Source of the DNA: Candidatus Nanohaloarchaea archaeon
GTDB lineage: Archaea; Nanohalarchaeota; Nanosalinia; Nanosalinales; Nanosalinaceae
Length of the DNA stretch: 16,317 nucleotides
Direction: 5' to 3'
Assembly (NCBI GenBank): GCA_046497485.1
Contig: JAWOFP010000021.1
Span: 1-16,317 of the forward strand
In this document: positions 1 through 16,317 of the stretch, one piece after another
Layout: the number at the start of each line of letters is the position of its first letter
Position numbering within the stretch: the stretch's first letter is position 1
The notes under the pieces: generated by a model
Told to the model about the DNA's origin: nothing
Database searches by the model: none
The model's input: the letters and a program-made list of their open reading frames with translations, nothing else
Made by a program: the position numbers and the translations under genes

Positions 1-266
1 ATTGAGGCCTCAGTCTTTGAATGAATCCATTCATTATCCTTTCTAACCCATTCTCCGACTTTTCTCAAGTCTTTGCAGTAAGAAGAGTATTTCCTGTTTC
101 CAGGCTTCGCAACTAATTGTGTATTACCGTCATAGTAGATCTCATATTCTCCTCCTGAAGGTCCGGTAACTTTCATCTCCTCCTCTTTCACCTCTTCAAC
201 TGTTAGAGGAGTCTTCCTATCGCTGAACAGGATTTTATCACCTTCCTCAAATTTTTCAAATTTCAC
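1..266 (-). CDS. Hypothetical protein, 3'-truncated by the window edge (MKFEKFEEGDKILFSDRKTPLTVEEVKEEEMKVTGPSGGEYEIYYDG...)
   Basis: Not in the ORF track. Manual translation gives an open frame from GTG at 266 to the window edge. The start overlaps the end of the DUF1405 gene by 11 bp, which suggests coupling. The product is acidic and probably beta-rich. Confidence 0.7.
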   Translation of the reverse strand, partial: MKFEKFEEGDKILFSDRKTPLTVEEVKEEEMKVTGPSGGEYEIYYDGNTQLVAKPGNRKYSSYCKDLRKVGEWVRKDNEWIHSKTEAS

Positions 267-843
267 GAAACTTGTTTAGGATATCATCTTTTTGAATCAA
301 TAACAGGCCTGAAACCAGCGCCAGTATACTCAGCGAATAGGCTGCAATTTTGGCTGGAAAAGTGTACTCAGTGTAAAGCTCGGTATGCGTTCCGAAGGTA
401 TAATCTATGAAGTCATTAAATTTATACCAGAGAAAAGCCCCAACTAGAGCTTTCAGACCAATATTCTCCCATTTGAACAGTAAGAAGGCCTGTATAGCCA
501 TCGCAAAATGAGAGATTAACATAAAGCTGTATAGAGCGATAGAGTTACCAGTGAAAAATATCTCTGAGTAATAAGTTATGCAGAATACTGTCCAAAGCCC
601 GTACTTGAAGTTAGAGATAAATGCTAGAGCATCCAGAGCTGGAAGGCCTCTATTATCCGCATTTAGATATAATGAGACTGCGAAAAGTAGTGTTGCAATA
701 GGAGAAGCAGGCACAAAGATCCATAGAAGCGGATCAGTTGTGAGAAGCTGGTTGCTGTAATAGTAGAATCCAAATAATGTTCCAAGTAAGTTGACTATAG
801 CTATCAAATACAGAACCTTTCTTTCAAATATTTTCTCCAGCAT
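256..843 (-). CDS. DUF1405 (YpjA-like) integral membrane protein
   Basis: Multi-TM protein carrying the family-type motifs NLLGTLFGFYYY..QL, W.FVP(A/D)SP.AT, KYGLWT, SH.AM..QA and ND..DY..G.H. Confidence 0.8.
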   Translation of the reverse strand: MLEKIFERKVLYLIAIVNLLGTLFGFYYYSNQLLTTDPLLWIFVPASPIATLLFAVSLYLNADNRGLPALDALAFISNFKYGLWTVFCITYYSEIFFTGNSIALYSFMLISHFAMAIQAFLLFKWENIGLKALVGAFLWYKFNDFIDYTFGTHTELYTEYTFPAKIAAYSLSILALVSGLLLIQKDDILNKFREI

Positions 844-897
844 TAAATGAAAGTTGAGGCCTTAGTGTTTGTAAAAATATCTCCCACATCTTGATTT

Positions 898-1878
898 ATG
901 AGTTTGATAAAAGCAGAGAATCTTTCGAAGACCTTCAAGATTTACAGTCAAGGCGAGGGAATTAGAGGCTATCTGAAATCTTTTGTGAAAAGAGATTATG
1001 AAGAGGTTCACGCGGTAGAAGGCCTGAATCTAGAGATTGATAGCGGTGAGATGATCGGCTATATCGGATCAAATGGTGCTGGAAAGTCAACTACTGTTAA
1101 GATGCTGACAGGAATTCTTGAACCAAGTTCGGGAGAGATTGAGGTTGATAAGAGAGATCCTCACAAGCATAGAAAGAAGAACGCGATGAATATCGGAGTA
1201 GTCTTCGGACAAAAAACTCAGCTCTGGTGGGATCTACCTGTAAAAGAATCATTCAAGCTTCTGAAGGAAATCTATGAGGTCTCAGACAAGGCCTACGATG
1301 AGAGAATTGAGGAGTTCAATGAAGTTCTGCAGCTGGATGAGTTCTGGGAACAACCAGTAAGAAAGCTTTCACTGGGTCAGAAGATGCGATGTGAACTAGC
1401 CGCAGCATTTCTCCATCATCCGAAGATTGTCTATCTTGATGAACCTACTATAGGCCTGGATGTCGCAGTAAAAGAAAGAATCCGGGACTTCATCCGTAAG
1501 ATGAATGAGAATGAAAACATTACTGTAATGCTGACAACCCACGATATCGGAGACATAGAGGACCTATGTAAGAGAATCGTTGTACTGGATGAAGGAAAGA
1601 AGATTTATGATGGCTCATTGGATAAACTAGTAAACAGATTCTCTTCCCGGAGACTGGTTATGCAGGTTGAAAGGCCTGAAGACTTTGAATTAAATGTGGA
1701 CGGAGTGAAGGAAATTAAGAATACGGATGACGGCCTTGAAGTCGTGTTTGATAGAGAGGTTATTTCGGCTTCTGACCTGATGCGGATTATCTTAGAGGAT
1801 TACGAAGTCCAGGACTTCCAGATCCGGGAGCCTGATATCGAGGAAGTTGTGAAAAAGGTGTACAACGAGGGAATCTGA
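898..1878 (+). CDS. ABC-2 type exporter ATP-binding subunit
   Basis: Walker A GSNGAGKST, Q-loop GQKTQLWWDLP, signature LSLGQKMR, Walker B VYLDEPT and H-loop TTHD are all present. Confidence 0.95.
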   Translation: MSLIKAENLSKTFKIYSQGEGIRGYLKSFVKRDYEEVHAVEGLNLEIDSGEMIGYIGSNGAGKSTTVKMLTGILEPSSGEIEVDKRDPHKHRKKNAMNIGVVFGQKTQLWWDLPVKESFKLLKEIYEVSDKAYDERIEEFNEVLQLDEFWEQPVRKLSLGQKMRCELAAAFLHHPKIVYLDEPTIGLDVAVKERIRDFIRKMNENENITVMLTTHDIGDIEDLCKRIVVLDEGKKIYDGSLDKLVNRFSSRRLVMQVERPEDFELNVDGVKEIKNTDDGLEVVFDREVISASDLMRIILEDYEVQDFQIREPDIEEVVKKVYNEGI

Positions 1879-2660
1879 TGAGTCTGAAAAAGTATCTATC
1901 CTTTACCCGTGTAGGCCTGAGAGAAGGATTTCAGTACCGAGCGAATGCTTTATCTGGTATAGGCGCCACATTAATTTCCCTTGTTTTATTCTACTTCATC
2001 TGGAAGGCGATCGCAGCCTCAGGAGAGCTGGCTCAGCCTTTCTCAACTATAATCGCATATGTTGCACTGGCAAGAGTCATTGACAACGCAACCTCAGCAG
2101 ATCTGGAAAACTGGATAGGCGAAAGAGTCAGAAAAGGAACAATCGTGAATGAACTAAAGAAGCCAGCTTCTTTGAAGTTTCAGATGTATTTTTACCAACT
2201 AGGGAAGTCTTCTTTCAAACTAGTAGTTAGAGGAATACCCGCTTTAATTGTTGGAATACTTTTCCTTAATGTAGGTTTGCCAACTTTTATCGGAGGCCTC
2301 CAGTTCCTGTTTTCGATCTTTCTAACACTGAATCTAGCAATTGCATTGTCTTATACTACCTCAATGCTGGTGTTCTGGACCAAAGTAGGTTGGAGCCTCA
2401 GGATGACACGGACCATGGTAGCAGGCCTGTTCTCAGGAGCGATGATCCCTCTCTACCTTGTCCCGGACAACATCAGAGCAGTCTTCAACTTAACACCTTT
2501 CCCTTCCATGGTTGATGCCCCTATTTCAATCTATCAAGGAACTGCGGAAAGCGTTATCCAGGTATTTGGAATCCAGCTTATGTGGATAATTATACTAGCT
2601 ATCTCTTCAGAACTACTGTGGCGAAAAGCCAAGAAAAAAATCACGGTACAGGGAGGGTAA
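1878..2660 (+). CDS. ABC-2 family exporter permease (DUF990 / ABC-2_6 type)
   Basis: About 6 TM segments, motifs G.I..EL.KP and FSGA.IPL...P, and C-terminal VQGG typical of the family. TGATG overlap with the ATPase gene. Confidence 0.9.
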   Translation: MSLKKYLSFTRVGLREGFQYRANALSGIGATLISLVLFYFIWKAIAASGELAQPFSTIIAYVALARVIDNATSADLENWIGERVRKGTIVNELKKPASLKFQMYFYQLGKSSFKLVVRGIPALIVGILFLNVGLPTFIGGLQFLFSIFLTLNLAIALSYTTSMLVFWTKVGWSLRMTRTMVAGLFSGAMIPLYLVPDNIRAVFNLTPFPSMVDAPISIYQGTAESVIQVFGIQLMWIIILAISSELLWRKAKKKITVQGG

Positions 2661-2664
2661 AACC

Positions 2665-3477
2665 ATGAGAGAAAAAATTCAAGGCCTGAAAAAATATGCA
2701 ACAATCTACTGGCTTTACTTCAAACAGTACTGGAAGTCCAGACTGGTCTACAAAACAGACTTCGTACTAGGAGCATCCGCACAACTAATCAGCGTAATAG
2801 TATCTCTAGCATTCCTAACACTGGTCTTCACACAGATAGAGAATCTTCAAGGCTGGACATTCAACGAAATGCTATTCCTAGCAGGATTCGGCGGAACCGT
2901 GATATTTGCACAGAATGTATTCTTCTTCAACATAATCAGACTAGGAGAAGAATATCTAATCACAGGAGACTTCGACAGATTCCTAGTAAGGCCTCTAAAC
3001 CCATTATTCCAAGTATATGCTGATGATGTACATGATAACAATGTGCCGAAAGTGATCGCAAACCTTGCTTTAATCTTTTACGCAGGATATCAGATAGGCC
3101 TAACACCAAACCTACTGACATTAACTTATGCAGCGTTTTCGATGATGAGCGGGATGCTTGTAGCAGCCTCAATCTACCTATTGTTCTCAAGCACAGCCTT
3201 CTGGACCGGAACATCAAGAAACGCAGTCTGGCTCATATTCAGGCTCAGCAACTTCAGGAAATATCCAATAGAGATATTCGCACTGGCAATTCAAGGCCTA
3301 CTTGTAACCTTAATCCCCTTAGCTTTCGCATCGTTCTTCCCAGCATCCTACATCCTAGGAAAAGAAGGATTCGAAACATGGAAAGTTATTACGCCATTCA
3401 TAGGCCCAGTATTCTTCTACATAGCCTATAGATTCTGGAAGTTAGGCCTAGGAAATTACTCGAGTACTGGGAGTTGA
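2665..3477 (+). CDS. ABC-2 family exporter permease (second subunit)
   Basis: Motifs GW...E, GDFDRFLVRP.NPL, YP..IF, IP.AF....PA and C-terminal YSSTGS. GGAGG lies upstream of the start. Confidence 0.9.
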   Translation: MREKIQGLKKYATIYWLYFKQYWKSRLVYKTDFVLGASAQLISVIVSLAFLTLVFTQIENLQGWTFNEMLFLAGFGGTVIFAQNVFFFNIIRLGEEYLITGDFDRFLVRPLNPLFQVYADDVHDNNVPKVIANLALIFYAGYQIGLTPNLLTLTYAAFSMMSGMLVAASIYLLFSSTAFWTGTSRNAVWLIFRLSNFRKYPIEIFALAIQGLLVTLIPLAFASFFPASYILGKEGFETWKVITPFIGPVFFYIAYRFWKLGLGNYSSTGS

Positions 3478-3684
3478 TTATTTTTCTGTTCTCTCATCTA
3501 GAACGCTTAAAACAATGTCTCTATTGTTTTCAGTGTAAAGAATATTAGCTACTCCTTGATTTGATTCTGTAACAGAAATACCTAGCCCCATTTGGTCAAA
3601 GACTTCTTTTAATTCGTTGTAGAGGCCTGATTCGCCGTGTATAATGAATCTTTCTCCATCGTCCTGTATTTTGGTTATCCTCAT
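3478..3684 (-). CDS. Small hypothetical protein (68 aa)
   Basis: ATG start, acidic composition, fills the gap between genes. A TATA-like element lies about 25-30 bp upstream. Confidence 0.6.
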   Translation of the reverse strand: MRITKIQDDGERFIIHGESGLYNELKEVFDQMGLGISVTESNQGVANILYTENNRDIVLSVLDERTEK

Positions 3685-3707
3685 AACTTGGTTTGGAAGG
3701 CCTGAAA

Positions 3708-3714
3708 TTTATAT
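3708..3714 (-). promoter_or_regulatory. Putative TATA box (ATATAAA) for the leaderless 68-aa gene
   Basis: Located 24-30 bp upstream of ATG 3684, the spacing expected for an archaeal leaderless transcript. Confidence 0.45.
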
Positions 3715-3763
3715 CGTGTAGATTTTTCTAAAGATTCAAAAGATATCGGCTTAAACAGAAGTT

Positions 3764-4135
3764 ATGGAGATAAGGCCTGAACTAGAAGATCTGAATATTT
3801 TCCATTATCTCGGGATTCTAGCAGCAATTATTTCAGGGTTTATCCATCTCTACTTAGTGCCTTCTATAGGCCTCGGTCCGCTAGGAATAGGTTTCCTGGT
3901 CGCAGGTCTTGGATTCTTTGCAGGATCTTTAGCCATACTTTATAATTTCAAGAGAAGTCTAACCTATCTTCTTGGAATTCCTTTTACAGCCGGACAGATA
4001 ATTCTATGGTACTACTTGAACAAGCCTTCACTAGAGCTTTTCCTGAAGGGAAAGCCTTTACTGGATTTCATCGATAAAGTTTCACAAACCCTGCTTCTAG
4101 CAGTTCTTATATATCTCTACTTTGAAGGTGAATAA
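3764..4135 (+). CDS. Small membrane protein of a haloarchaeal-type family (about 4 TM)
   Basis: Motifs H.LG..AA.ISG.IHL.L, F..AG.GF, Y.LGIPFT..QI..W and DKV.Q resemble conserved haloarchaeal hypothetical membrane proteins. Confidence 0.7.
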   Translation: MEIRPELEDLNIFHYLGILAAIISGFIHLYLVPSIGLGPLGIGFLVAGLGFFAGSLAILYNFKRSLTYLLGIPFTAGQIILWYYLNKPSLELFLKGKPLLDFIDKVSQTLLLAVLIYLYFEGE

Positions 4136-4137
4136 TT

Positions 4138-5016
4138 ATAGCATTTACAGGCCTGATCCTCGCTTCACTGACTGCAGTATTCAAATCATCTTCAGAGATC
4201 CTCTCAAAATATACTTTAGTTGAAGAATTAAACGAATACACAGTTTCTTGGAGCCAGAGATTCTTCGCTTTACCCATATTGGCATTAGCTATCTTAATTT
4301 TTGGCATTCCCTCTCTTTCCAGTAATTTCTGGATGGCTATAAGTTTTGATGTTCCAGCAGGAGTTGCTGCGACAGTCCTCTACATGAAAGCGATTAAGGC
4401 CTCGGATATCTCTCTGATGTCTCCACTGGCTGCAATCTCTCCCGCATTAGTCCTTGTTTCTTCCCCTTTCATTGTTCAGGAGTTTCCATCGGTCCTGGGA
4501 CTGATAGGCGTAATGGTCACGACTGTAGGCCTGTATATCCTGAAATTAAATAAGATAGATCGAGACTGGTCGGCTCCGATAAGAAGTTTGTTTCACGAAG
4601 ATGGCTCAAAGTTCATGGTCGGGATGCTTTTAATCTATGCTATTTCGGCACCGGTCGGAAAACTTGGTGTAGAGGCTTCTTCACCTGTAATGTACAGCAC
4701 AGCACTTCATATAGGCCAGATCCTTTTTCTCACTCCTTTAATGATCTTCAAATCACGCAAGTGGAAAAATGAAGTTAGAAATAATGGGAAAGCACTAGCA
4801 GGAATAGGCCTTTTGTCAGGAGCGGCTTCAGTAATTCAGATGGCTGCCTACACCTACACACTAGTCGTTTACGTAATAGCAATCAAGAGATCCGGTATTT
4901 TGATCTCAACTCTGGTCGGAGGAAAAATATTTGACGAGGAACATGTCAAACAGAGATTAATAGGCGCCACGATAATTTTACTGGGCCTAATACTAGTTGC
5001 ATTAACTCAGGCCTAA
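4138..5016 (+). CDS. EamA/DMT-family transporter (real start probably ATA 4138 or ATT 4135, not TTG 4279)
   Basis: Two EamA repeats (A.K...IS...PL....P..E, and a C-terminal F.E.....R..GA..I..G). The frame is open from 4132 and encodes the TM1 and TM2 missing from the track ORF. SD-like GAAGGTGA at 4124-4131. Confidence 0.85.
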   Translation: MAFTGLILASLTAVFKSSSEILSKYTLVEELNEYTVSWSQRFFALPILALAILIFGIPSLSSNFWMAISFDVPAGVAATVLYMKAIKASDISLMSPLAAISPALVLVSSPFIVQEFPSVLGLIGVMVTTVGLYILKLNKIDRDWSAPIRSLFHEDGSKFMVGMLLIYAISAPVGKLGVEASSPVMYSTALHIGQILFLTPLMIFKSRKWKNEVRNNGKALAGIGLLSGAASVIQMAAYTYTLVVYVIAIKRSGILISTLVGGKIFDEEHVKQRLIGATIILLGLILVALTQA

Positions 5017-5017
5017 C

Positions 5018-5899
5018 CTATTCCTCCATCTTATCTATATCCTCGAACTCATCCTCTAAATCTTCTAGCTCCGAGCTTATGTCTGAGGCCTTGTTCCACG
5101 CGTTCTTTAAATGTGTATCGTAGTAGGTGTTCCAGTTACTTCTGATTCTCGATAGTTTGTTACCGATTGTCTGAATGTTTTCCTGTACTTCTTCAGCTTT
5201 CTCTGAAAGCTGTTTGGTCTTGACATCAGACTTAATCAGTTCCAGTTTATGGCCTAATGTGAGCGGGGAAACCACCTGGACACCTTTCTTGGTGTATCTG
5301 TTCAGTAATTCATATTCCTCCTTCACAAGATAATAGTATACTCTTTCGGAAGGTACGAACTCAAAGGCGTACTCTGCTGTTCCTTCTTCGGGCCTCACAT
5401 ACTTTCTCTCTATCTCTTTCAACTGTTTTTCTACATCGTTCCTGAACTTTCTCCTGTAGTTCGCATCTTTGTCCTCTTCATCCATTAATCGTTCAAAGTT
5501 ATCCAACGGGAACTTGGAGTCAATTATTATGTTTCCCTGTGAGCTTCTTATGTAAGCATCCGGAGTCTTCCCATCAACTACTCTTTCCCGAATCCCATAC
5601 ATAGAAGTAGGGAGGTGGTCCTCTAACAAGGCCTCAAGCTTAACCTCTCCGAACTCACCTCTTTCCCTCGGGTTCTTCATCATAGTTTCCAAGTCAGTGT
5701 GCAAATCCTTGATCTCGGAAACCTGGTTTTCAATCTGGCCGATCTCCTTATCCAACCTCAGATCTCGCCAGGACTCGCTGACTGCCCCTCTAACTTTGTC
5801 AGGATCCACTTCAATTTCCGGATCCTCATCGTTCAACTGTAAGTATAGAATTGCTCCAAGTAAAGTTATCGCGACTAGAAGTAGGCCTATCTCGATCAT
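5018..5899 (-). CDS. rmuC: DNA recombination protein RmuC
   Basis: N-terminal TM anchor, coiled coil, RGEFGE..LE motif, PD-(D/E)xK core PDAYI...IIIDSKFP, FVPSE and VSP.TL. Confidence 0.92.
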   Translation of the reverse strand: MIEIGLLLVAITLLGAILYLQLNDEDPEIEVDPDKVRGAVSESWRDLRLDKEIGQIENQVSEIKDLHTDLETMMKNPRERGEFGEVKLEALLEDHLPTSMYGIRERVVDGKTPDAYIRSSQGNIIIDSKFPLDNFERLMDEEDKDANYRRKFRNDVEKQLKEIERKYVRPEEGTAEYAFEFVPSERVYYYLVKEEYELLNRYTKKGVQVVSPLTLGHKLELIKSDVKTKQLSEKAEEVQENIQTIGNKLSRIRSNWNTYYDTHLKNAWNKASDISSELEDLEDEFEDIDKMEE

Positions 5900-5939: not shown

Positions 5940-7364
5940 TTACTGGAAGAAGTCCTTCATAGCAGGATGTAATTCTTCCATGTGTTTCTGAGCGAGCTGC
6001 TCGTAAAGCCTGTACAGGATCATTACTGTTAGCAGGATTCCCATTCCTCCTCCTGCAGCTCTGAATATGTCTGCTGTAGCTGCAATGAATCCGACTGAAG
6101 CTCCAGCTACGATTACTAGAGGCGGAATATATCTATCTAGTACTTTCTTGATCACTCGCTTGTCCTTTCTGAATCCTGGTACTTTCATACCTGTGTCTTG
6201 AATCTGGTCAGCTACCGCATCTGAGTCCTGGCCGGTAGTCTTCGCCCAAAATATTGAGAATATAGCTGCGCCTGCAGTGTATATCAGTATATAGAATAGT
6301 ACATGTAATACATCAAATCCTGTTACTGCTAGATCGCCTGTAACTCCTCCGACTAATAGGTTCTCTACGAAGTCTGCTGGAGGATTAACTAGGTAAACTA
6401 ACCCATCTGTTGGCTGTCCCTGTGAGTCGAAGCATCCTAATGGAGAGCAGTTAGTTACATCGTCAGCCGCTATTGTTCCTATAATCTGCATGTTAGCGAT
6501 CAATGCCGATACGAAAATTACGGGCATAACGCTTGTGTAGAAGAATTTCAGAGGCCATTTCTGTCCAAATCCTCTAACGTTACCGAATGTCAATGGGATT
6601 TCGACTTTCATTCCTTGGAGGTAGACCACTCCTGCGAATACGGCGATAGTTGAGAATATTACTAGGCCTGATTCTACGCTCTGCGTCATCAGGAACTCAA
6701 ATACCTGTCCCTGTGGTGCCGCAGATGTTTCCCAGAAGAATCCTGATCCTGTACCTGTCTCTGCGTTACCTGCTGCAAACGGTGAGAACAGTTGCGTCAT
6801 GATTCCTTTTGAGACTCCTCCTGCGATGAAGAGTCCTACTCCTGATCCGAATCCCCATTTCTGTACGAGGTCGTCCATCAGGATTACGAGCCATCCTCCT
6901 GCCGTGATCTGTCCTGTTATGAGGAAAAGTAGCATTGGGTCGCCTGCAACGCTTCCAAATGTGCCTGACATTGTGAAACCTAAGGCCTGTACTACTGTGA
7001 GGCCGTAGGCAAGCATCTTCTGAGCGGCCTGGAACTTCTGCTTTCCTTCCTGTGAATCAGTGTTCCATCCAAGAAGTTCGGATCCTACCATCATCTGTAA
7101 GACAATCGATGCTGTAACTATAGGTCCAATACCCAGTGTAATAAGCGACCCAATATTAGATCCTAGAAGTGTCTGAAAAGTACGAAGCTGTTGAATCGCG
7201 GTTTCTACCTGTTGGGCGTCTGCCGCGTAAATCGGTATTTCAGAAAGTAAAAAGTATAGTAATAGCGTTATTCCTGTCCAGATCAGCATCTGTTTTAATG
7301 TCTGTTCTTTGTCCGGATTCTCTACTGTCGGAAGATACTGCGCTGCCTGGAACCAGGATACCAT
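5940..7364 (-). CDS. secY: Preprotein translocase subunit SecY (Sec61 alpha)
   Basis: Motifs GSLITLGIGPIVTASIVLQ, KWGFGSGVGLFIA, PLKFFYTSVMP.I and PGFRKD, about 10 TM segments, canonical position after uL15. Confidence 0.98.
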   Translation of the reverse strand: MVSWFQAAQYLPTVENPDKEQTLKQMLIWTGITLLLYFLLSEIPIYAADAQQVETAIQQLRTFQTLLGSNIGSLITLGIGPIVTASIVLQMMVGSELLGWNTDSQEGKQKFQAAQKMLAYGLTVVQALGFTMSGTFGSVAGDPMLLFLITGQITAGGWLVILMDDLVQKWGFGSGVGLFIAGGVSKGIMTQLFSPFAAGNAETGTGSGFFWETSAAPQGQVFEFLMTQSVESGLVIFSTIAVFAGVVYLQGMKVEIPLTFGNVRGFGQKWPLKFFYTSVMPVIFVSALIANMQIIGTIAADDVTNCSPLGCFDSQGQPTDGLVYLVNPPADFVENLLVGGVTGDLAVTGFDVLHVLFYILIYTAGAAIFSIFWAKTTGQDSDAVADQIQDTGMKVPGFRKDKRVIKKVLDRYIPPLVIVAGASVGFIAATADIFRAAGGGMGILLTVMILYRLYEQLAQKHMEELHPAMKDFFQ

Positions 7365-7399
7365 AGTTAGTCTTTAACCTCTACCATTGAAATAAGCAT

Positions 7400-7822
7400 T
7401 TATTTCTCTACTGCTTCTCCGTCTGCTTCCTCAATCTTTCTCTCAGCAGAACTGGAAAAGCTTTCAGCATGGATTTCTACCTCTTTGTTCAAGTGGCCTT
7501 TACCAAGGACTTTGTCGTAACCCAGATCATCTAAATCCAGTACGTAAGCTCCGTCCTCTTCTGTTGCGAGGCCTTCCTCAACCATGTCGTCGATTCTCTG
7601 GTCGATATCTCTGAGGTTGATTGCGTTCTGCTCAGGCTGTCGGGAGCTGAATCCTTCTTCTCCTAGACTCTGAACTCCTTCTTCTGTCAGTCTTTTTGAC
7701 TGTCCTTTCTTACCTGATCCTGCGTTTCCTTTTCCACCGCGGTTTCCTGCTCCTCTGTTCTTCTTTGAGGACCCATATCCATGGCTTCCGGACTTATTCT
7801 TCTTTGATCTTCTCTTAGTCAT
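7400..7822 (-). CDS. rpl15: 50S ribosomal protein uL15
   Basis: SHGYG..K..RGAGNRGG.G.AG, INL, YDKVLGKG and FS.SA..KIE.A.G motifs. Confidence 0.96.
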   Translation of the reverse strand: MTKRRSKKNKSGSHGYGSSKKNRGAGNRGGKGNAGSGKKGQSKRLTEEGVQSLGEEGFSSRQPEQNAINLRDIDQRIDDMVEEGLATEEDGAYVLDLDDLGYDKVLGKGHLNKEVEIHAESFSSSAERKIEEADGEAVEK

Positions 7823-8166
7823 TATACCATCCTCTCTATAAGTTCGTCAATGTTCTCATGATTTCCAAGGCTTCCGCCCTGATTAACATTCTTTCTCGTG
7901 TTTCTAAATCCTTTACTTGGAGGCCTTGCACTGATTGTCTCTCCTACTTCAGCATTACCATATCGTTCTTCAAGCTTCTCAACTGTCTCTTCACTGACTT
8001 CTCCATATGCGATGAAATCTTTTGCCTTGTTCAACATTCCTCTGATAGACTCTGTGTCTTCATAAAGCCTAATCTGATTCCTGTTCTCTAGGCCTAGATT
8101 CGTCATCGTATCCTTGATTGGCTTTGGAACATCTACATTTCCTCTTACTTTTACTGCTGCAATCAT
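7822..8166 (-). CDS. rpl30: 50S ribosomal protein uL30 (short archaeal form)
   Basis: MIAAVKVRG, GML.K.KD.IAYGE, PP.KGF, G.LG and I.ELIERM motifs; synteny. Confidence 0.93.
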   Translation of the reverse strand: MIAAVKVRGNVDVPKPIKDTMTNLGLENRNQIRLYEDTESIRGMLNKAKDFIAYGEVSEETVEKLEERYGNAEVGETISARPPSKGFRNTRKNVNQGGSLGNHENIDELIERMV

Positions 8167-8837
8167 TGTGCTTCTACCTCTTCTCTTGTCTTCATTTCTG
8201 TAAGTTTTTCAAGCGCGTTAAATGTTGCTCTTGTCAGATTCTCTCTGGTCCTTGTTGTTCCTCTGGTCTTTACCCAGATGTTTTCAATTCCTGCAAGCTC
8301 CATGATCTTTTTGACCTCATCGCTGCATGCGAGGCCTGTTCCTCTTGGAGCAGGTTTAAGCTCTACTGTAACTGAACCTGATTTTCCTTCTACTGCGTAT
8401 GGAATGCTTGAGTTGTCTTCGCCTGTGTCTTCCCATGATCCGTTGCCTTTAGGCACTTTGATCAAGTTAAGCTTGGCTTCTCTGTTTGCATCATCGATTG
8501 ATGCTCTAGTATCTTCAGACTCTCCTGTTCCTAATCCGATTACACGGTTTCTGTCGCCCAGTACTGTCATGGCGTTACTTGAGTATCTTGCTCCCGACTT
8601 ATGCATTCTAGCTGTTCTCTTGGAGACTGTACGTCTTTTGCCTCCTCCTTTTCCTGGGGTTCCTCCAATCAGGATTACTTCTTCGTCTAGGTCTACTAGC
8701 TGGTCTACGAGTTCAGGCTCCATAATAGGCCTTTCGTAGTCTAGTGCTTCTACTATATCTGTGATTTCTCCGTTTGCTACCTTCTTCCCAAGCTTTGTTT
8801 TGGGCTTCCAGATCTCTTCACTTTCCTGTTCTGCCAT
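8163..8837 (-). CDS. rps5: 30S ribosomal protein uS5
   Basis: W.PKT.LG..V, E...VD.L, GSWE, G.SGSV.V.L.PAPRGTGL, LAGI..W and N..RATF.AL motifs. Confidence 0.97.
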   Translation of the reverse strand: MAEQESEEIWKPKTKLGKKVANGEITDIVEALDYERPIMEPELVDQLVDLDEEVILIGGTPGKGGGKRRTVSKRTARMHKSGARYSSNAMTVLGDRNRVIGLGTGESEDTRASIDDANREAKLNLIKVPKGNGSWEDTGEDNSSIPYAVEGKSGSVTVELKPAPRGTGLACSDEVKKIMELAGIENIWVKTRGTTRTRENLTRATFNALEKLTEMKTREEVEAQ

Positions 8838-9343
8838 TAAAATTCACCTTCGATTTCTTCTTTTGTTTCTTCAAAGTTTTCAGGCACATCTTCATCTCTG
8901 ATCTCTTTGATGTGCTCGCCTCTAATCCTTGACTCTTCAGGATAGGCTTTTTCTCCAGCAGGGACTTCTAGGCCTGCGTCGTTCATTCCTTTGACTGCGG
9001 CATAGATTCGACCGCCTTCTTTGCTTTCTCTAAGACCTAAGTCTAGGATTGCTTTGTCTTCATCAGTCTTCATTCCTAGCAGGTATCCTGCGAGGTATGC
9101 TGATGGAAGATTCCCTGTGTTTTGATCCCATCCGTACTGTTCTAACTCTTCTGTGGATGTGAAGTCTGTGTTTTCATCTCCGTCTCTGTTGTAGTAAGAG
9201 ATATGTGCTTTAGTATGCTTATTGCTCGTTCTTACTACGACTCTCGGCGAGTCAGATTTAAGCAGGTTTAATCTCTGCTCGTAATCTGTCTCTTGGTTTC
9301 TTCTTCTCTTGTGCGGTACCTTAAAATTTGAATTATCTGCCAT
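8837..9343 (-). CDS. rpl18: 50S ribosomal protein uL18
   Basis: RRR...TDY..RL.LLKS..PR.VVR.SN, NLPSAYL.GYL.G, AILDLGL and RIRGEHI motifs. Confidence 0.97.
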   Translation of the reverse strand: MADNSNFKVPHKRRRNQETDYEQRLNLLKSDSPRVVVRTSNKHTKAHISYYNRDGDENTDFTSTEELEQYGWDQNTGNLPSAYLAGYLLGMKTDEDKAILDLGLRESKEGGRIYAAVKGMNDAGLEVPAGEKAYPEESRIRGEHIKEIRDEDVPENFEETKEEIEGEF

Positions 9344-9796
9344 TTAGTTCTCCAACTCCATCTTGTTCTCTACATGGTTTTCAACGTGGTTAACGTCTCT
9401 GAAAAATCCTCCCTTAGACTTGTTATAAAGATCTCTGTACTCTTCAGAGTTAACCGTTCCTTCGTCTCTCATCTCTCTAAGTCTTTTTCTAATCGCTCTA
9501 ATCTGTTCCTTCCATGTATCTTTTGAGGACTTTCTTGCGTTCTTTGCTCCCTTACGGGAACCATGACCTTTCTGAAGGCCTTTCTTTTTCTGTTTCTTGT
9601 TCTTCTTTGAACGGGCCTTTGAAGTGCCTTTGACATCTTTCTTATCGATTGTTCCTCCTTCTACAAGATTTCTAATGTCCTGACGAGTGATTGCTTCGGC
9701 AACTTTGTCAGTATGTTCTGGGTCAATCCAGACACGGTTTTTACCGACTTTCATTACTTCTGCTGCCATTCTTCTCTGACTCTTTAAATCGCTCAT
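9344..9796 (-). CDS. rpl19e: 50S ribosomal protein eL19
   Basis: L..QRRMAA.V.KVG.NRVWIDP, AITR.DIR.L, G.GSRKG...AR and W...IRA.R motifs. Confidence 0.98.
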   Translation of the reverse strand: MSDLKSQRRMAAEVMKVGKNRVWIDPEHTDKVAEAITRQDIRNLVEGGTIDKKDVKGTSKARSKKNKKQKKKGLQKGHGSRKGAKNARKSSKDTWKEQIRAIRKRLREMRDEGTVNSEEYRDLYNKSKGGFFRDVNHVENHVENKMELEN

Positions 9797-10122
9797 TTTT
9801 CTTCACCTGCGTTCAATAATTTAATATCCAGTTCCTCAGCTTTTTCAACTATCATTGCTGTCTTCTTTCCTCCAACTGTTGAACCGATCCGTGCTGCATC
9901 TTCCTCAGGATCTAGATCTTCTAGGTCCTCAGGCCTATGCACTAATACATCTTCGAAACCTGAAGGATGTTTTCCTCTGATATCTTCAGGGGTTCTGAGG
10001 CCTGCTTCCGGCATCTGTGGTGCGGACTTCAGTTTTAATCTCTGTTTACTATGTTTTCCTACAGGCCGTCTGTAAGATGTGTTAATTCTCTTACTTTTGT
10101 GAGTATTCTGTCTTTTAGCCAT
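9793..10122 (-). CDS. rpl32e: 50S ribosomal protein eL32
   Basis: RRP.G.HSK.R, RG.HPSG...VLV and IG.TVG.KK motifs, with KLLN near the C-terminus. Confidence 0.95.
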   Translation of the reverse strand: MAKRQNTHKSKRINTSYRRPVGKHSKQRLKLKSAPQMPEAGLRTPEDIRGKHPSGFEDVLVHRPEDLEDLDPEEDAARIGSTVGGKKTAMIVEKAEELDIKLLNAGEEK

Positions 10123-10652
10123 TATTGATCTCCTCCATTGGTTTCAGTGATGTAGACTCCGTCCTGGAAAGTTCTTGGATCTCTGTTGCCTTTCCTGCAC
10201 ATCTGTTCGATTCGTGCTGCTGTCTGACTTACTTTCTCTTTGTCGCGGCCTGAAACTTCAACGTCATCTCCGTCTACCTTGACTGTTACTCCTTCCATTA
10301 TGTCCACTTTTCTAGGGTGCTGTTCTCCCATGAAGTTCTCGATTACTACTTCGTTGTTTTCTTGTTTGATTGTCATTGGGAAGTGTGCGTAAACACCTTT
10401 CATCTTGTAGACATATTCTTCTTGAAGGCCTTGAATCATGTTTTTTGTATGTGACTGGTACGTCCTTGCAATACTGTAAATATCTCTCTTGTCTCTTACA
10501 GCTGTGAAACTGACTTCGTTTCCTGTTACTTCTGTATCTACAAGCGAGTTGTCCATCTTCTTCTCAAGTTCGTTGTCTCCATCGGATACCGTTAGGATTC
10601 CATCATCAAAACTTGCTTCGAATCCTTCTGGTAGCTCTACTGTTTCTGTCAT
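10122..10652 (-). CDS. rpl6: 50S ribosomal protein uL6 (start moved to ATG 10652)
   Basis: H..NMI.G, YAHFPM, NF.GE, V.QTAA.IEQ and RDPR.FQDG.YI motifs. The track's GTG 10664 is part of the SD AGGTGA upstream of the ATG. Confidence 0.96.
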   Translation of the reverse strand: MTETVELPEGFEASFDDGILTVSDGDNELEKKMDNSLVDTEVTGNEVSFTAVRDKRDIYSIARTYQSHTKNMIQGLQEEYVYKMKGVYAHFPMTIKQENNEVVIENFMGEQHPRKVDIMEGVTVKVDGDDVEVSGRDKEKVSQTAARIEQMCRKGNRDPRTFQDGVYITETNGGDQ

Positions 10653-10664
10653 TTTCTTATTCAC

Positions 10665-11051
10665 CTAGTAGACGTATCCGAGGAGTTTTCCTCCTACGCC
10701 TTGGTCTCGTGCTTTTTCGTGTGTCATGATTCCATGACTTGTGGTTACCAGCAGATCTCCGAAGTTTCTAGCCGGTAAGTATCTCTGAGCCCAGTCCTCG
10801 AACTCATCTTTTTGGACTGAGAAGTTTGGTTTTACAGGCTGGCACTTGTTAATATTTGTGACTTCAACCTTGAATTTTCCTCCTTTACCGTCTTCTACCA
10901 GCTCGAATACACCGATGTATCCGTTCTGCTGAAGCTCGATAAGGACATTTTTCACTACACTGCTTGTAGGAGCGATCGTTGCATGAGTCTTATCGTTTCT
11001 TGCTGCGTTGTTGATCGCGCTTAAAGCATCGCTTAAAGTATCTTGTTCCAT
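10665..11051 (-). CDS. rps8: 30S ribosomal protein uS8
   Basis: D.LSDALS.I.NA, GYIG.FE, INKC, YLPA..FG..VTTS.G.MTH and GG.LL.YVY motifs. Confidence 0.98.
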   Translation of the reverse strand: MEQDTLSDALSAINNAARNDKTHATIAPTSSVVKNVLIELQQNGYIGVFELVEDGKGGKFKVEVTNINKCQPVKPNFSVQKDEFEDWAQRYLPARNFGDLLVTTSHGIMTHEKARDQGVGGKLLGYVY

Positions 11052-11063
11052 TTTTTATCTCCT

Positions 11064-11288
11064 CTATTTGAGTTGTTCAAACCCTAGGTCTTCTGCGATT
11101 TCTCGGAAGCATTGTCGGCAGAAGTTCAAACCATATTTGCTGATAACTCCTCTACCTGTTCTTCCGCATCTTCTGCATTCTTTCTTGGATTTTCCGTAGT
11201 CTCGCTCTTTTGGAGCATTGTTCTTCTCAAATTTCTTTCTCTTTCCTTCCTTGTGCTTAATCTGTTCTAGTACTGCTTCATAAGACAT
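11064..11288 (-). CDS. rps14: 30S ribosomal protein uS14 (zinc-binding, N-terminally extended)
   Basis: CRRC...KYGL..CRQCFRE.A..LGF. Confidence 0.96.
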
Positions 11289-11797
11289 TATTGATTCACC
11301 TCTACTCCAAATGTCTCCTCGACATAATTGATTGCGTCTTCACGGCTGACCTGATGTTCCTCTCCTACTTCACTAGGCTTGTAATCTCTTCTCTTGACCC
11401 TGTAACCAGGCCTTTCTAGATTCACTGTTACCTCGAATCCCATCATGCCGATGTCTGCGTCGTAATCGACTCCTGTAACATCGATGTACTCTGAAACTCC
11501 GAATCCGAAGTTTCCATTACTGTCAAACTGTGAAGCATCGATTGATTCGACTGCTGTTATTACTTTCTCTAGGAATTCTTCTGCTTCTTCTCCTCTGAGT
11601 GTTGTCATTGCTCCGATCTTCAGGCCTGAACGGTTTCCGAAGGTCTTTGCGTTTTCACCAGATTCTGTTTTTACTGCTGTTCTTCCTGTAAGTTTCTCGA
11701 TCAGGTTCTTTGCTTTCTCTACGTTTTCTCCGACCTGTCCGATTCCAATGTTTACTGCTGCTTTACCGATCTTGATTTCTTTCATCTCTTCACTCAT
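11288..11797 (-). CDS. rpl5: 50S ribosomal protein uL5
   Basis: K..VNIGIG, IG...TLRG..A..FL, FD..GNF.FG..EYID, YD.DIG..G and RPGYRVKRR motifs. Confidence 0.97.
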
Positions 11798-12452
11798 TTG
11801 AAACCACCTCTAGGTCTCCTTTTGCAAATAGTTTTTCTTGCATGATCTCGAACTCTGATTCCTGTGTCTCTATTGTGGCTGTGTCAGGCCTCATTCCTCT
11901 GCTGTGAAGTTCTTTGACTTCTGCGACTTCACCTGCGTGTTTTCCTCCGAGAATCACTACTTCGCTTCCTTCCTCAATCTGGAAGGCTTCGACGTCTCCG
12001 TTGAAAACCAGTGTGGCTCCTGTGGAGTATTCGTCTTCTGTTCTGTAATTTTCGCCGTTGTGAAGATGGTAAACGTATTCATCTCCTTCAACCGTTTTAC
12101 CGGTTACCTTGGCTGCGGCCCTGTTATCATCTGTTTCCTGGAATACTAGGCCTTCTGCTTCTGGAAGCATCCTGAATGTCTCTCCTGTTTCATCAATCTC
12201 TATAACGTCCATTACTCCGATTGTGTCTCTAACGCTTCTGACACGGTCGCCGTTTCTGAACAGGACTCCGTTTCTGATTATCTCTTTTGCTTCCTTCTTG
12301 GTCTCTGCGTATCCTGTGACTTCTCTCAGAAAGATCACTGAAGGGATTCCCTGTTCTGGGCTTCTGCTTCCTTCTGTAGTTGTCGTGTATGTAAGGCCTT
12401 TTCTATCAATTGCGTAATGCTTAGGTGCCGATAGTCTTTTCTGATGTACCAT
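11790..12452 (-). CDS. rps4e: 30S ribosomal protein eS4
   Basis: H.KRLSAP, LRE..GYA....EA..II, G.MDVI, LH.G.N and GG.H.G motifs. Confidence 0.96.
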   Translation of the reverse strand: MVHQKRLSAPKHYAIDRKGLTYTTTTEGSRSPEQGIPSVIFLREVTGYAETKKEAKEIIRNGVLFRNGDRVRSVRDTIGVMDVIEIDETGETFRMLPEAEGLVFQETDDNRAAAKVTGKTVEGDEYVYHLHNGENYRTEDEYSTGATLVFNGDVEAFQIEEGSEVVILGGKHAGEVAEVKELHSRGMRPDTATIETQESEFEIMQEKLFAKGDLEVVSNE

Positions 12453-13055
12453 TTATTCTTTCTCCTCTTCTTCTGATTCTTCGGATTTTTCCTCAGACTC
12501 TTCGCCAGTTTCTGATTCCTCTTCTACGTCTTTAGTTTCTTCATCTTCTTCTGTGTCGAAGTCTGTTGGCTGTCCCTGCTGCTGCATCTTCTGCATCATC
12601 TCGTTCTCGTCTTCATCTTCCTCAATCTGTTCAAGTTCTTCTTCCTCTACTTCGATCTCTGAGAAGTCGTCTACATCGTACTTCTCAATTCTTGAATCAT
12701 CTTCAAGGTTCAAGGCCTGAAGCTGCAGGTTTGAAGGATCTAAAGGTTTCTCCTTCATTGTTCCGTCAATTTTCTGACGGTCTAAATTGTTAATATAGAT
12801 TTTTTCTTCCTGTCTATCAATGTTTGAAACGATTCCTTCGACTCCGCTGTCGTCTCCTCTCATGACTTTTGCTCGGTCTCCAACTCGGATACCGAGATTT
12901 CTGACTCCTAGCTCATCTCTAAGAGTTTGGTTAAGGTTAGCTGAAATAAACTTGTCTCTTACATGCATTGGAGCGTTATCTCTGTACTTTCTCTGCTTTG
13001 ACTGATTAGTGCTTGATTTCCAGCTGCTGCTCCAGTTCTGTGTTTTATCTACCAT
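12453..13055 (-). CDS. rpl24: 50S ribosomal protein uL24 with a long acidic C-terminal tail
   Basis: S....KQRKY..NAP.H.R, KOW motif GD...VMRG...G.EG and DPSN. Confidence 0.96.
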   Translation of the reverse strand: MVDKTQNWSSSWKSSTNQSKQRKYRDNAPMHVRDKFISANLNQTLRDELGVRNLGIRVGDRAKVMRGDDSGVEGIVSNIDRQEEKIYINNLDRQKIDGTMKEKPLDPSNLQLQALNLEDDSRIEKYDVDDFSEIEVEEEELEQIEEDEDENEMMQKMQQQGQPTDFDTEEDEETKDVEEESETGEESEEKSEESEEEEKE

Positions 13056-13058
13056 TTT

Positions 13059-13460
13059 TTACACCACCTGTGATGCGATCTTTCCTACAGGACCGTATCT
13101 TTTGACTACTTCTTTTGCGATTGGGCCTCTTGTAACATTTCCTTTTGGAAGGCCTGTCTCTTCTTCTACAAGTACTGCTGCGTTGTCTTCAAACTGTACT
13201 CTCATTCCGTCAGGTCTCTGGAATTCTTTGTTCTGTCTTACGATCACTGCGTCGAATACCTGGTGTTTTACTTCCTGGTCTCCTCTTAGAATCTTGACTT
13301 TTACTTTGTCGCCGATTCCTGCAGAGTTTCTCCTAGATCTTCTTCCTTTTCTGGATTTGACTCCAATTATCTCAAGTTTTTTAGCTCCGCTGTTGTCAGC
13401 GCAAGTAAGCTCTGCTCCGATGTCTAAGGTCTTTGTAATGTTTGATCCTAGTGGCTTCAT
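13059..13460 (-). CDS. rpl14: 50S ribosomal protein uL14
   Basis: CADNSGAK, AG.GD, AVIVRQ.K...RPDG.RV.FEDNAAV and GPIAKE motifs. Confidence 0.98.
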   Translation of the reverse strand: MKPLGSNITKTLDIGAELTCADNSGAKKLEIIGVKSRKGRRSRRNSAGIGDKVKVKILRGDQEVKHQVFDAVIVRQNKEFQRPDGMRVQFEDNAAVLVEEETGLPKGNVTRGPIAKEVVKRYGPVGKIASQVV

Positions 13461-13792: not shown

Positions 13793-13934
13793 AGTGTTCA
13801 CCTCTAATTTCTTTTGCCGAGACAATAAGGCCTAAACTAGAAAACCCTGTATTACAAGCGGTTTTCAACTTTCAGGCCGTTGAGAGTATCGAAACCCTGT
13901 CCGAGTCTCAGCGACACACCGTTACGGTGTAACT
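13793..13934 (-). ncRNA. Candidate structured 5' leader (cis-regulatory RNA) of the uS17-secY transcript
   Basis: Five helices read by eye, four of them nested in one domain. The G-U wobbles form only on the minus strand. The element lies between a TATA box and the SD. Confidence 0.55.
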
Positions 13935-13951: not shown

Positions 13952-13959
13952 CTTTAAAA
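13952..13959 (-). promoter_or_regulatory. TATA box (TTTTAAAG) of the uS17-secY transcription unit
   Basis: Archaeal TATA consensus about 25 nt upstream of the first leader hairpin. Confidence 0.6.
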
Positions 13960-14003
13960 GGGTGGATAGGCCTGGGCTCTAGAAGTAAAAGTAGAAAATT
14001 TTT

Positions 14004-14288: not shown

Positions 14289-14352
14289 AAATTTACTATT
14301 AGTTTTCAGAGATTAAATGAAAAATTGTAGTGAAGTACAGCAAAATCCAGTC

Positions 14353-14359
14353 AAAAAAA
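14353..14359 (-). terminator. Oligo-T terminator candidate immediately after the 130-aa orphan
   Basis: The stop codon TAG is followed directly by a T run on the minus strand. Confidence 0.45.
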
Positions 14360-14752: not shown

Positions 14753-14779
14753 GATACACTGTAAAAATATGGGAGAAAA

Positions 14780-14786
14780 TTATAAA
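14780..14786 (-). promoter_or_regulatory. TATA box (TTTATAA) for the leaderless 130-aa orphan
   Basis: Consensus TATA at leaderless spacing from ATG 14752. Confidence 0.55.
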
Positions 14787-14848
14787 CAGGTATTCCAAAA
14801 ACTGATTAGAAATTCTAGAATAAATTAATGAAGAAAAAATTTAGGCCT

Positions 14849-15157
14849 TTATTTTACATCGATGTTGGCTCTTGAGAAGCCTTCTTCGATGAGTGCATCG
14901 ACGATTCTTCTGCGGTGGTCTCCCTGTAACTGGATTTCTCCATCTTTGGAGGTTCCTCCGCAAGCCATCTTAGACTTGAGTGTGGATGCTAGTTCTTTCA
15001 GGTCATCTTCTTCTGATAGGCCTGATACAACTGTCATCTCTTTGTTGTATCGTCGAGAGTCGACTTTAACTGTGATTTGCTGGTCTTCGCGAGAAATTGA
15101 GTCGCATACACAGAGGTCTTCTGGCATGCCGCATTTAGGACAAGTAGTCTCTGCCAT
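14849..15157 (-). CDS. sui1: Translation initiation factor aIF1 / SUI1 homolog
   Basis: N-terminal CPKCG.P.DLCVC, RRY.K..T.V.G and LKSK.ACGGT.K...I.LQGDHR. Canonical position after uL29. Confidence 0.96.
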   Translation of the reverse strand: MAETTCPKCGMPEDLCVCDSISREDQQITVKVDSRRYNKEMTVVSGLSEEDDLKELASTLKSKMACGGTSKDGEIQLQGDHRRRIVDALIEEGFSRANIDVK

Positions 15158-15163
15158 TATTAT

Positions 15164-15364
15164 TTAGTTATTCCTCTCGGTTAGAACTGTTTTCATGCGT
15201 GCAATGGTTTTTCGCATCTCTCCGATTCTACCTGGATTATCTGAGAAGCCTCCTACTTCGATCTGGCCTCTCTCCTGTACAAGCTCTTTGCTCATGTCGG
15301 ATATGTGCTCTTTGAGTTCGCTGGTATCCATTTCTCTGAGCTCATCCATCTTGAATATTGCCAC
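15164..15364 (-). CDS. rpl29: 50S ribosomal protein uL29
   Basis: ELREM...EL, EL...R and NPGRI.E.RKTIAR.KT motifs. Confidence 0.97.
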   Translation of the reverse strand: MAIFKMDELREMDTSELKEHISDMSKELVQERGQIEVGGFSDNPGRIGEMRKTIARMKTVLTERNN

Positions 15365-15390
15365 TATCTAATCACTTCCTCTGATTTGTT

Positions 15391-16317
15391 TTATACTTTA
15401 CCTTCAAGCCAATCAATGAAGGTTGTACGGTTTTTATTGGATTTTTCTGCTTCAAGAGCGGCTTCAAAGTCCGGGTTATCTAAATCGTCAAGTGCGTCCT
15501 TGGCGTCGCCGATGGTTCCTGAAACTATTTCATCGTACTCTGCTTCGTCGCCTTCAGATTCTTCGGATTCTTCAGAATCTACTTCTGCCTTCTCTTCGTC
15601 CATCTCATTCTCTGGTTCATCTTCAGGTTCCGATTCTTCGGAAACTTCTTCTGAATCTTCTTCCTCTTCTGAGGCCTCAGATTCTTCCTGTTTCTCATCA
15701 TAAGCTTCCTGATCAAAGTCTTCAAATGCTTCTCTCAGATCCTCTTTTGAGATATCTCCAGTCTGAAGTTCTTCTTCCTTCTCTTCGATAGCTCTATCAA
15801 GTTCTGCAGCAGTCATGTTCTCTGCTTCCGCCAGTATATGCTCTATTCTGTCGGACTTGCTTGCTGCGTCTTCTGATTCTTCGGATTCGTGAAGAATTTC
15901 CTCACTTACATCCACATCTCTGTGCATGAACTCAGGCATTTCCTTCATGACTCTTACTTTTACACCGATTGCTCCAGGAATAGTAACTGCGAGTGCGTAA
16001 CCATCCTGAACATTTGCCTTACTGGTGTTACCACATCGCTTTACATATCCGAACGAGAACTTCTCAGTTCTTCCACGGTTACCGGAAAGCTTTCCAGTAA
16101 TCTCGATTTCTGCGCCGATTACTCCGGCATCCTTCATTCTTCTTGTGTAAGTATATCCTACACGCTTGACGTGGCCTCCTTTCTCAAGCCAGTCAGCAAT
16201 AGCGTCTGCAACTACCTGTGCATCGCCGTCAGGATCTTCGATCTCATTTACCTCAATCTGAGGGTTCTCAAAGTCGAACTCCTCTTCCATAGCGGATGTG
16301 AGCTCTCTGATTCGAGA
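15391..16317 (-). CDS. rps3: 30S ribosomal protein uS3 (5'-truncated) with a large C-terminal extension
   Basis: The frame is open to the window edge (SRIRELTSAMEEEF...). Motifs P..DA..VA..IA..LE, G.EI.I.GKL.G.R.R.EKF..GY.K.CG and G..GVKV are present. Confidence 0.97.
   Translation of the reverse strand, partial: SRIRELTSAMEEEFDFENPQIEVNEIEDPDGDAQVVADAIADWLEKGGHVKRVGYTYTRRMKDAGVIGAEIEITGKLSGNRGRTEKFSFGYVKRCGNTSKANVQDGYALAVTIPGAIGVKVRVMKEMPEFMHRDVDVSEEILHESEESEDAASKSDRIEHILAEAENMTAAELDRAIEEKEEELQTGDISKEDLREAFEDFDQEAYDEKQEESEASEEEEDSEEVSEESEPEDEPENEMDEEKAEVDSEESEESEGDEAEYDEIVSGTIGDAKDALDDLDNPDFEAALEAEKSNKNRTTFIDWLEGKV

Follow-up and report, generated by a model that had tools for sequence, protein, structure and literature searches.

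The DNA analysed here is a stretch of 16,317 nucleotides (hereafter the window; GC 42.5%), which forms contig C37 of the genome (G000) of a Candidatus Nanohaloarchaea archaeon. It comprises a SecY/ribosomal-protein region encoding acidic proteins, and it carries, dispersed over almost its whole length, the palindrome AGGCCT, which is the subject of this work. In a tree of SecY regions the window groups with the loci L054 and L055 with full support, and its closest titled relatives are records of Nanohaloarchaea.

Exact counting revealed 55 copies of AGGCCT, an array spanning 5..15677 and assigned to neither strand. Base composition predicts 2.7 copies and a first-order Markov model 3.6; dinucleotide shuffles of the window gave a mean of 3.23 (largest 11), and 0 of 200 reached 55. 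The copies start at positions 5, 305, 486, 644, 857, 1020, 1289, 1452, 1672, 1913, 2294, 2423, 2682, 2989, 3096, 3294, 3444, 3623, 3698, 3773, 3868, 4149, 4397, 4527, 4806, 5009, 5086, 5629, 5883, 6664, 6983, 7569, 7921, 8090, 8332, 8727, 8970, 9576, 9931, 9998, 10426, 11408, 11622, 11886, 12148, 12394, 12713, 13150, 13828, 13968, 14070, 14386, 14843, 15018 and 15672, the closest pair being 67 bp apart. The flanks A..T occur on 55 of the 76 GGCC tetramers of the window (72%), and 18 of the remaining 21 have one correct flank. A preliminary description of this DNA had estimated about 55 copies where 2-3 were expected (a ~20-fold excess) and A..T flanks on ~70% of GGCC, with most of the rest one base off; these estimates proved accurate.

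The same description had placed sites in three reading frames of an ABC ATPase gene and in five intergenic positions, and our own gene calls agree. Within the gene at 898-1878 (plus strand), one site lies in a Gly-Leu frame spanning three codons (1020..1025), one in a Lys-Ala-Tyr frame (1289..1294) and one encodes Arg-Pro (1672..1677). The intergenic sites, to which no strand applies, are 857..862 (with divergent genes on either side), 3698..3703, 13828..13833, 13968..13973 and 14843..14848. The cluster of SecY and ribosomal-protein genes (5940..13460, minus strand), which served as phylogenetic marker and as the locus for the analysis of site turnover, has a normal density of AGGCCT. We define an opportunity as a place where the encoded protein permits AGGCCT by synonymous codons; 47 of the 70 opportunities in the called genes of the window are filled. 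Ribosomal-protein genes are filled at a normal level (17/26 and 19/25, the former in the window cluster).

The excess is a feature of the whole genome. G000 contains 3,249 copies in 967,558 bases, on 66 of 66 contigs and at 1.8-5.8 per kb, which is 21 times the 154 copies expected from composition and 14.8 times the expectation of a first-order Markov model. Under a second-order model AGGCCT has a ratio of 6.35 and no other palindromic hexamer exceeds 1.63. The seventh and eighth bases, flanking the word, are nearly free, and CGATCG occurs at expectation (91 versus 99). With 1,124 genes called (91% coding), the density is 3.31 per kb in coding and 3.85 per kb in non-coding DNA, and in the latter 336 sites stand against 9.5 expected. 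The excess is independent of reading frame (516, 1,001 and 1,400 coding sites), of strand and of gene orientation, intergenic densities being 3.4-3.8 per kb in all arrangements.

Such a signal might in principle arise secondarily from biases in codons, amino acids or assembly, and AGGCCT does fit common codons, although nothing more speaks for this. When synonymous codons were shuffled with the proteins fixed, 313 sites were obtained (largest 336 of 20 shuffles) against 2,917 observed in coding DNA, a ~9-fold excess. Together with the non-coding counts and the recurrence of the signal in 12 of the family's 50 genomes, which were assembled independently, this refutes such an origin, whose probability we consider negligible. 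The preliminary description had inferred a genome-wide process in a nanohaloarchaeal lineage, and had named as contrary outcomes an observed/expected ratio near 1 after codon control and an excess limited to this contig or assembly. Neither was seen, and the proposal is supported by the contig-wide, codon-shuffle, protein and family results.

The force behind the excess reaches into the proteins themselves. In G000 opportunities are filled at 514/659, 979/1,510 and 1,400/2,168 (65-78%); the corresponding values are 644/770, 1,334/1,872 and 1,505/2,109 in G005, another AGGCCT-positive genome, and 16/320, 30/837 and 40/1,266 in the negative G024. Relative to distant synonymous variants, AGGCCT has odds of 43x in G000, 48x in G005 and 0.6x in G024. 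Moreover, the dipeptides Arg-Pro (1.58x expectation in G000, 1.56x in G005, 0.79x in G024) and Gly-Leu (1.44x, 1.30x and 1.01x) are inflated in the positives, which indicates that the force alters amino acids. Filling in G000 is lower in genes that have no counterpart in G005 or G024 (479/876, 0.55) than in core genes (1,936/2,692, 0.72). Long stretches of G005 free of AGGCCT comprise rRNA, an island resembling a type I restriction-modification (R-M) system, and S-layer-like and giant genes, as we read their sequences. Some individual genes are also poor in the word: a uL16-like gene (our reading; G000:C8:13738-14256) has 0/5 opportunities filled, as does its G005 orthologue (0/5), an EF-1alpha-like gene 0/3, and a pilin-like gene on C64 1/17.

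AGGCCT also avoids itself. In G000 there are 134 gaps shorter than 40 bp between sites, against 409 expected. Self-avoidance was measured as filling conditioned on synonymous opportunities, and a permutation null was run as well. With increasing distance to the nearest other site, 17/108 opportunities are filled in G000 at 6-14 bp, 58/145 at 15-24 and 91/174 at 25-34, followed by 0.59-0.63 at 35-79 bp and 0.70-0.77 at 80-499 bp; in G005 the values are 75/158 at 6-14 bp, 137/225 at 15-24 and then 0.70-0.81. In G000 filling is thus as low as 16% when another site lies less than 15 bp away; filling has recovered by ~25 bp in G005 and by 80-100 bp in G000. Beyond 500 bp, in site-poor regions, it is ~0.5 in both genomes. 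The other 63 palindromic hexamers, when pooled, cluster instead (ratios of 1.45 and 1.37 at 8-24 bp). No 10.5-bp period was present in the distances between sites. At long range, the one genome analysed, G005, gave candidate periods of 95 kb (p 0.035, from filling) and 32.5 kb (p 0.03 with shuffled gaps, 0.15 with shuffled 5-kb blocks).

Words with GGCC and one correct flank are likewise excluded within 25 bp of a site (0.56-0.69), while variants at inner positions are not (0.86-1.06). Outside opportunities the terminal-base variants are enriched 2.1-5.3x in G005 (inner variants 0.56-1.45x) and 1.5-2.9x in G000 (inner 1.0-1.5x); inside opportunities this bias is weaker in G000. This combination of exclusion and enrichment indicates that one-flank variants act as weak sites. 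The tolerance is specific to the lineage, GGGCCT being enriched 9.3x in G005 and 1.7x in G000, and so is the composition of the flanks. In non-coding DNA, A is preferred at +2 and +3 in G000, and C, T and A at +1..+3 in G005, which leans toward GAGGCCTC as an extended word. In general the flanks favour A at +3 and +4 and, weakly, A/T at approximately +11-15 and +21-25. Judged from these sequence preferences, the lineage-specific tolerance and flanks look like the work of a reader whose specificity drifts.

Altered proteins, lower filling of genes without relatives and A/T-biased flanks are reminiscent of DNA-uptake sequences (DUS, Neisseria) and uptake signal sequences (USS, Haemophilus). AGGCCT might accordingly be a tag for DNA uptake or cell-to-cell transfer: a receptor would favour site-bearing fragments, and recombination would spread the word through a shared gene pool. 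Uptake sequences occur in thousands of copies, rewrite the proteome, are scarce in genes without relatives and have weak A/T flanks (PMC2817400, PMC3458573). The weak A/T preference near one and two helical turns from AGGCCT recalls the Haemophilus USS, in which T-tracts are phased (PMC3458573), and the cyanobacterial highly iterated palindrome HIP1 (GCGATCGC) has been reported to enhance transformation (PMC13756078). However, known uptake sequences are non-palindromic, 9-12 bp long and tied to competence machinery, whereas AGGCCT is a palindrome of 6 bp with a weak flank bias. DprA was found in 0/5 genomes, in a search that did not extend to ComEC, ComEA and archaeal transfer systems. The exclusion range of 25-100 bp is, moreover, far below the length expected of transferred fragments, and distant positive genera would have to share a tag that their congeners lack. 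We regard this origin as unlikely.

Single sites turn over freely. At the SecY locus, G000 and G001 share 23 of 41 sites. When only positions with unchanged amino acids are counted, 20 of 27 are shared (control hexamers 84/168), and between G000 and G002 16/17 are kept (controls 38/93). Since this retention equals the equilibrium level of filling, it does not discriminate between selection and drive. Synonymous divergence is not lowered near shared sites (observed/expected 1.01, 1.06, 0.98 and 1.04 at 0-100 bp; 8 pairs, 16,886 codons), and there is no GC gradient beyond ~20 bp from the sites.

These results bear on the candidate mechanism of methylation-coupled biased repair named in the preliminary description, and on the ratchet of this type modelled by Elhai (PMC4390886). 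Modification- or nick-directed repair would fix mutations that create a site, unless a site already lay within the repair patch, and the word itself would be useless. The ratchet predicts the exclusion of neighbours and the variants at terminal bases, both of which we observed. NucS/EndoMS is encoded by 5 of 5 genomes searched, though the negative G024 is one of them. There is also a cyanobacterial palindrome with the same core, CAGGCCTG, whose GGCC is methylatable (PMC5861425, PMC13756078).

The methylases themselves do not fit. Of the 41 genomes searched, 9 encode a C5 methylase; apart from G000, the enriched or partly enriched genomes among them lack one (0/7, including three single-contig assemblies). 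The N4/N6 family was absent from G002, G005 and G010, with one match over the cut-off in G022 and weak matches in G003 and G000; Dam-type (D12) methylases were found in 0/5 genomes. A motif scan gave no amino-methylase common to G000 and G005 and absent from G024. A methylase common to the positives is thus missing among the C5, N4/N6 and D12 families, type I enzymes (PF02384) and unknown modifiers having been outside the searches across genomes. The single C5 enzyme of G000, on C53, has M.HaeIII as its best match, in an alignment that covers the catalytic part (residues 4-168) but leaves out the recognition region; as it is not shared by the positives and its recognition domain is unlike that of HaeIII, we rejected it as the cognate enzyme. 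Its locus, L001 (G000:C53:98-4274), contains the methylase gene divergent from an AAA+ gene followed by a nuclease-like gene, which we read as a McrBC/LlaJI-like layout; with 8/10 opportunities filled, it has probably been resident for long.

HaeIII and NgoPII recognise GGCC. In G024 (L004:1456-3375) an M.HaeIII-like methylase (match over residues 2-317, E 3e-95) lies beside an NgoPII-family nuclease (E 6e-73), and G020, of a different genus, has the same pair (L003; 87% and 75% identical). By their likeness to HaeIII/NgoPII, both systems are predicted to be GGCC-specific. At the SecY loci GGCC is depleted to 0.36 in G024 and 0.29 in G020 (genome-wide, 0.41 in G024), and also in G021 (0.23), where no C5 match was found. 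The pattern of a restriction target, depletion together with a cognate R-M pair, was seen only in the negatives G020 and G024 and not in G000, in which AGGCCT is enriched. In this family, predicted GGCC methylation thus goes with loss, and not gain, of the word. As a separate observation, ACGT is strongly depleted in both G000 and G024.

The search for an orphan GGCC methyltransferase, proposed in the preliminary description, therefore uncovered none shared by the positives and GGCC-type enzymes in genomes that avoid the word. Of the two things that a ratchet requires, modification of the DNA and a surrounding zone of improved repair, neither was found. The exclusion of neighbours, the absence of better-conserved surroundings and the absence of a shared methylase in the families searched argue against it and favour a methylation-independent binder. 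We consider the ratchet disfavoured and rather unlikely, which leaves a protein site or a self or uptake tag among the candidates named in that description.

The comparison with related Nanohaloarchaeota, also suggested earlier, revealed a patchy distribution. The 12 enriched genomes of the 50 in the family carry ~2,000-4,750 sites per Mb (genome sizes rounded), G004 is intermediate (~950 per Mb), and the remaining 37 have ~55-690. Enrichment was absent from 16/16 genomes of other families of the order. Negative sisters occur even within one genus (g2, 2/6 genomes positive). In the SecY-region tree (2,444 columns; 22 of 46 titled loci chosen, 11 labelled positive, including a fading one), the well-supported branches require no fewer than 4 changes of state, and the positives of the family fall in at least four separate lineages. 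A FastTree phylogeny of the loci from our genome set is likewise polyphyletic for AGGCCT, with some deep groupings that differ; the two sets of loci overlap and are not independent. G004, the sister of G003 (10% amino-acid difference), has kept 4/21 sites at positions with unchanged amino acids, which indicates that the trait decays fast. No substitute iterated hexamer was detected at the SecY loci of negative genomes.

The nearest known systems are the highly iterated palindromes of cyanobacteria. HIP1 is, like AGGCCT, a short palindrome, enriched 15-300-fold, present within and between genes in all frames and deviating mostly at its first or last base, and its function is unsettled (PMC4390886, PMC5861425, PMC13756078). 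AGGCCT itself shows at least 15-fold enrichment genome-wide, a presence in all frames and intergenic DNA beyond codon bias, deviations at terminal bases, and conservation above that of control hexamers (G000/G001, G000/G002). It differs in sequence, in being archaeal, 6 rather than 8 bp long and present at ~3-4 instead of ~1 copies per kb, in its patchiness within genera as opposed to a phylum-wide spread, and in its short-range self-avoidance. HIP1, for its part, has a periodicity of 10-90 kb and, in the criterion of Elhai (2015), a cognate methyltransferase in the genomes that bear the word, whereas no such enzyme was found in our positives. AGGCCT thus behaves as a highly iterated palindrome distinct from HIP1, and in the families searched no cognate methylase was found with it; the array is likely an archaeal counterpart of the HIP1 word. 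The preliminary description knew of no comparable case, but there is a partial precedent in CAGGCCTG, the alternate palindrome of Synechococcus sp. PCC 6312, which includes AGGCCT and takes the place of HIP1 in one lineage (PMC5861425, PMC13756078). That word is an octamer in a cyanobacterium in which GGCC is a known methylation target, whereas the nanohaloarchaeal GGCC methylases mark negative genomes. The strand-discrimination sites GATC are also short palindromes selected for even spread; they need Dam and MutH, of which the former was not found here and the latter was not searched for, and AGGCCT is far more strongly enriched and has no visible protected zone. In Ca. Nanohalococcus occultus the motif that is methylated is GDGCHC (PMC11001535, PMC10266531). 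The term "GGCC" occurs 0 times in the main texts of these two papers, and "archaea" 0 times in that of PMC13756078. Our literature search, with limited coverage of subscription papers and supplements, yielded no archaeal report of such an iterated palindrome.

The two-fold symmetry of the word, sharp specificity at inner and tolerance at terminal positions, lineage-specific flanks and avoidance on a steric scale suggest occupancy by a dimer, with diminishing returns for additional sites. We therefore favour, at about even chances, the view that AGGCCT is a genome-wide, self-avoiding word and probably the site of a putative dimeric protein that binds it without need for methylation, its role being that of a binding site or chromosome tag. 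Weak selection (or a drive biased by binding) would add sites until there was approximately one per protein footprint, the footprint being perhaps ~25 bp, with a softer tail to ~100 bp in the genus of G000. The job of the protein would be structural, the organisation or marking of the cell's own DNA on a histone-packed chromosome, and not gene regulation. A more far-reaching version, which we put forward tentatively and consider somewhat doubtful, is that several nanohaloarchaeal lineages tag their chromosome with an unmethylated palindrome, read every 300 bases by the putative protein, and thereby pack or protect their own DNA in a host-attached, DNA-scavenging cell. The tag would be gained and lost between sister species, and neighbouring GGCC restriction systems would push in the opposite direction.

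Several findings weigh against the binding-site model. Firstly, the same exclusion would follow from a mutational drive whose enzyme remains on the DNA. Secondly, the phasing of flanking A/T (period 10.2-10.6 bp; z 7.6 in G005 and 3.3-3.6 in G000; 5-7x the pooled GC-rich controls) was rejected as specific to AGGCCT. One-off words (AAGCCT) equal it in amplitude even in the negative G024, and synonymous A/T positions have a general 10-bp autocorrelation in G000, G005 and G024, as expected for histone-wrapped DNA. Thirdly, histones do not distinguish the genomes: their numbers are alike (2-5 matches per genome in 30/30 genomes), and an aromatic residue of one histone that seemed linked to the trait in 9 genomes was also present in 10/15 further negatives. 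Finally, the search for a gene whose presence follows the trait gave none. From the genes that G000 has in common with the near-whole G005, we removed those also present in G024, the one negative genome used, the first 4 kb of G005 and G024 and the last 2 kb of G005 being left out. Of the survivors (55 G000 and 65 G005 genes), 43 were scanned with Pfam and ten were searched across genomes, and all ten failed. PolB2 is missing from the positive G022 and present in at least 5 negatives; a 402-aa protein is missing from the positive G010, with weak matches only in G022 and G053, and is not cleanly excluded. The others were a 240-aa protein, a class I SAM methylase, a SWIM protein, a 218-aa family, a 69-aa winged helix, an AbrB-like protein, a nuclease-like 140-aa protein and an Ogt-like protein. 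Of the 296 genes present only in G005, 165 were left after filtering, and 95 of these were scanned (15 with a family, 80 without); the 15 family-assigned proteins included no DNA methylase or nuclease. Genes present only in G024 numbered 246.

Alternatively, the reader might come from the haloarchaeal host as an imported methylase, nuclease or binding protein, in which case the trait would follow the use of hosts and not the genes of the symbiont. This would agree with the lack of a symbiont gene that tracks the trait, and protein traffic between nanohaloarchaea and their hosts has been proposed (PMC11001535). Nevertheless, the gene search was partial (one negative genome, and no family for 80/95 of the G005-specific proteins), so that its failure says little, and we consider a host-supplied reader quite improbable.

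The cause of HIP1 has been unsettled for three decades, partly since nearly all cyanobacteria carry the word along with the cognate methylases. Archaea with ~1,100 genes are now seen to have a signal of this kind, apparently without a methylase, by which iterated palindromes are separated from methylation. AGGCCT is, moreover, on or off between congeners (2/6 in one genus, and a fading genome beside a full one), and with genomes of this size the responsible gene should be findable by comparing a few of them. In practice, the word can serve directly as a marker in binning and in the recognition of imported DNA.

Some further observations concern DNA outside the main subject. A histone gene beside PolB (G000:C38:17437; relatives L245-L284) has Leu/Met in place of Tyr/Phe before a conserved His in g21 and in negative members of g2. 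PolB2 forms, with a small open reading frame, a 197-aa protein lacking a Pfam match and a Cdc6 paralogue, a cassette of patchy occurrence in the family (G000:C25:3-3014 and C18; L132:1002-5337), which we take to resemble an inducible mutagenesis cassette. A crude scan for CRISPR revealed no array. No nanohaloarchaeal virus was recognised among the at least 122 viral loci listed, and of 59 metagenomic loci of at least 2 kb, the one combining long reading frames with a dispersed excess above 10-fold was itself nanohaloarchaeal. L327 (G066, a viral record of 42,865 bases) is temperate-phage-like with a non-acidic proteome, and has 89 dispersed AGGCCT and 0 copies of the control TCCGGA. The nearest cluster of its integrase is mostly from Acidobacteriota, which may serve as a lead, and a bacterial lineage may thus iterate AGGCCT too. 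L093, titled Colwellia polaris, has a SecY region that is nanohaloarchaeal by tree and composition, and the record is probably mislabelled; G018 has two full-length copies of SecY (G018:C1:544203 and 788812). In the window, a gene at 5018-5899, directly after secY, encodes what we read as an RmuC-like membrane-anchored protein. Mapped sequencing reads reveal related strains (~1,870 differences), and in one sequencing run a contig fuses position 4154 to 5019, skipping the transporter gene.

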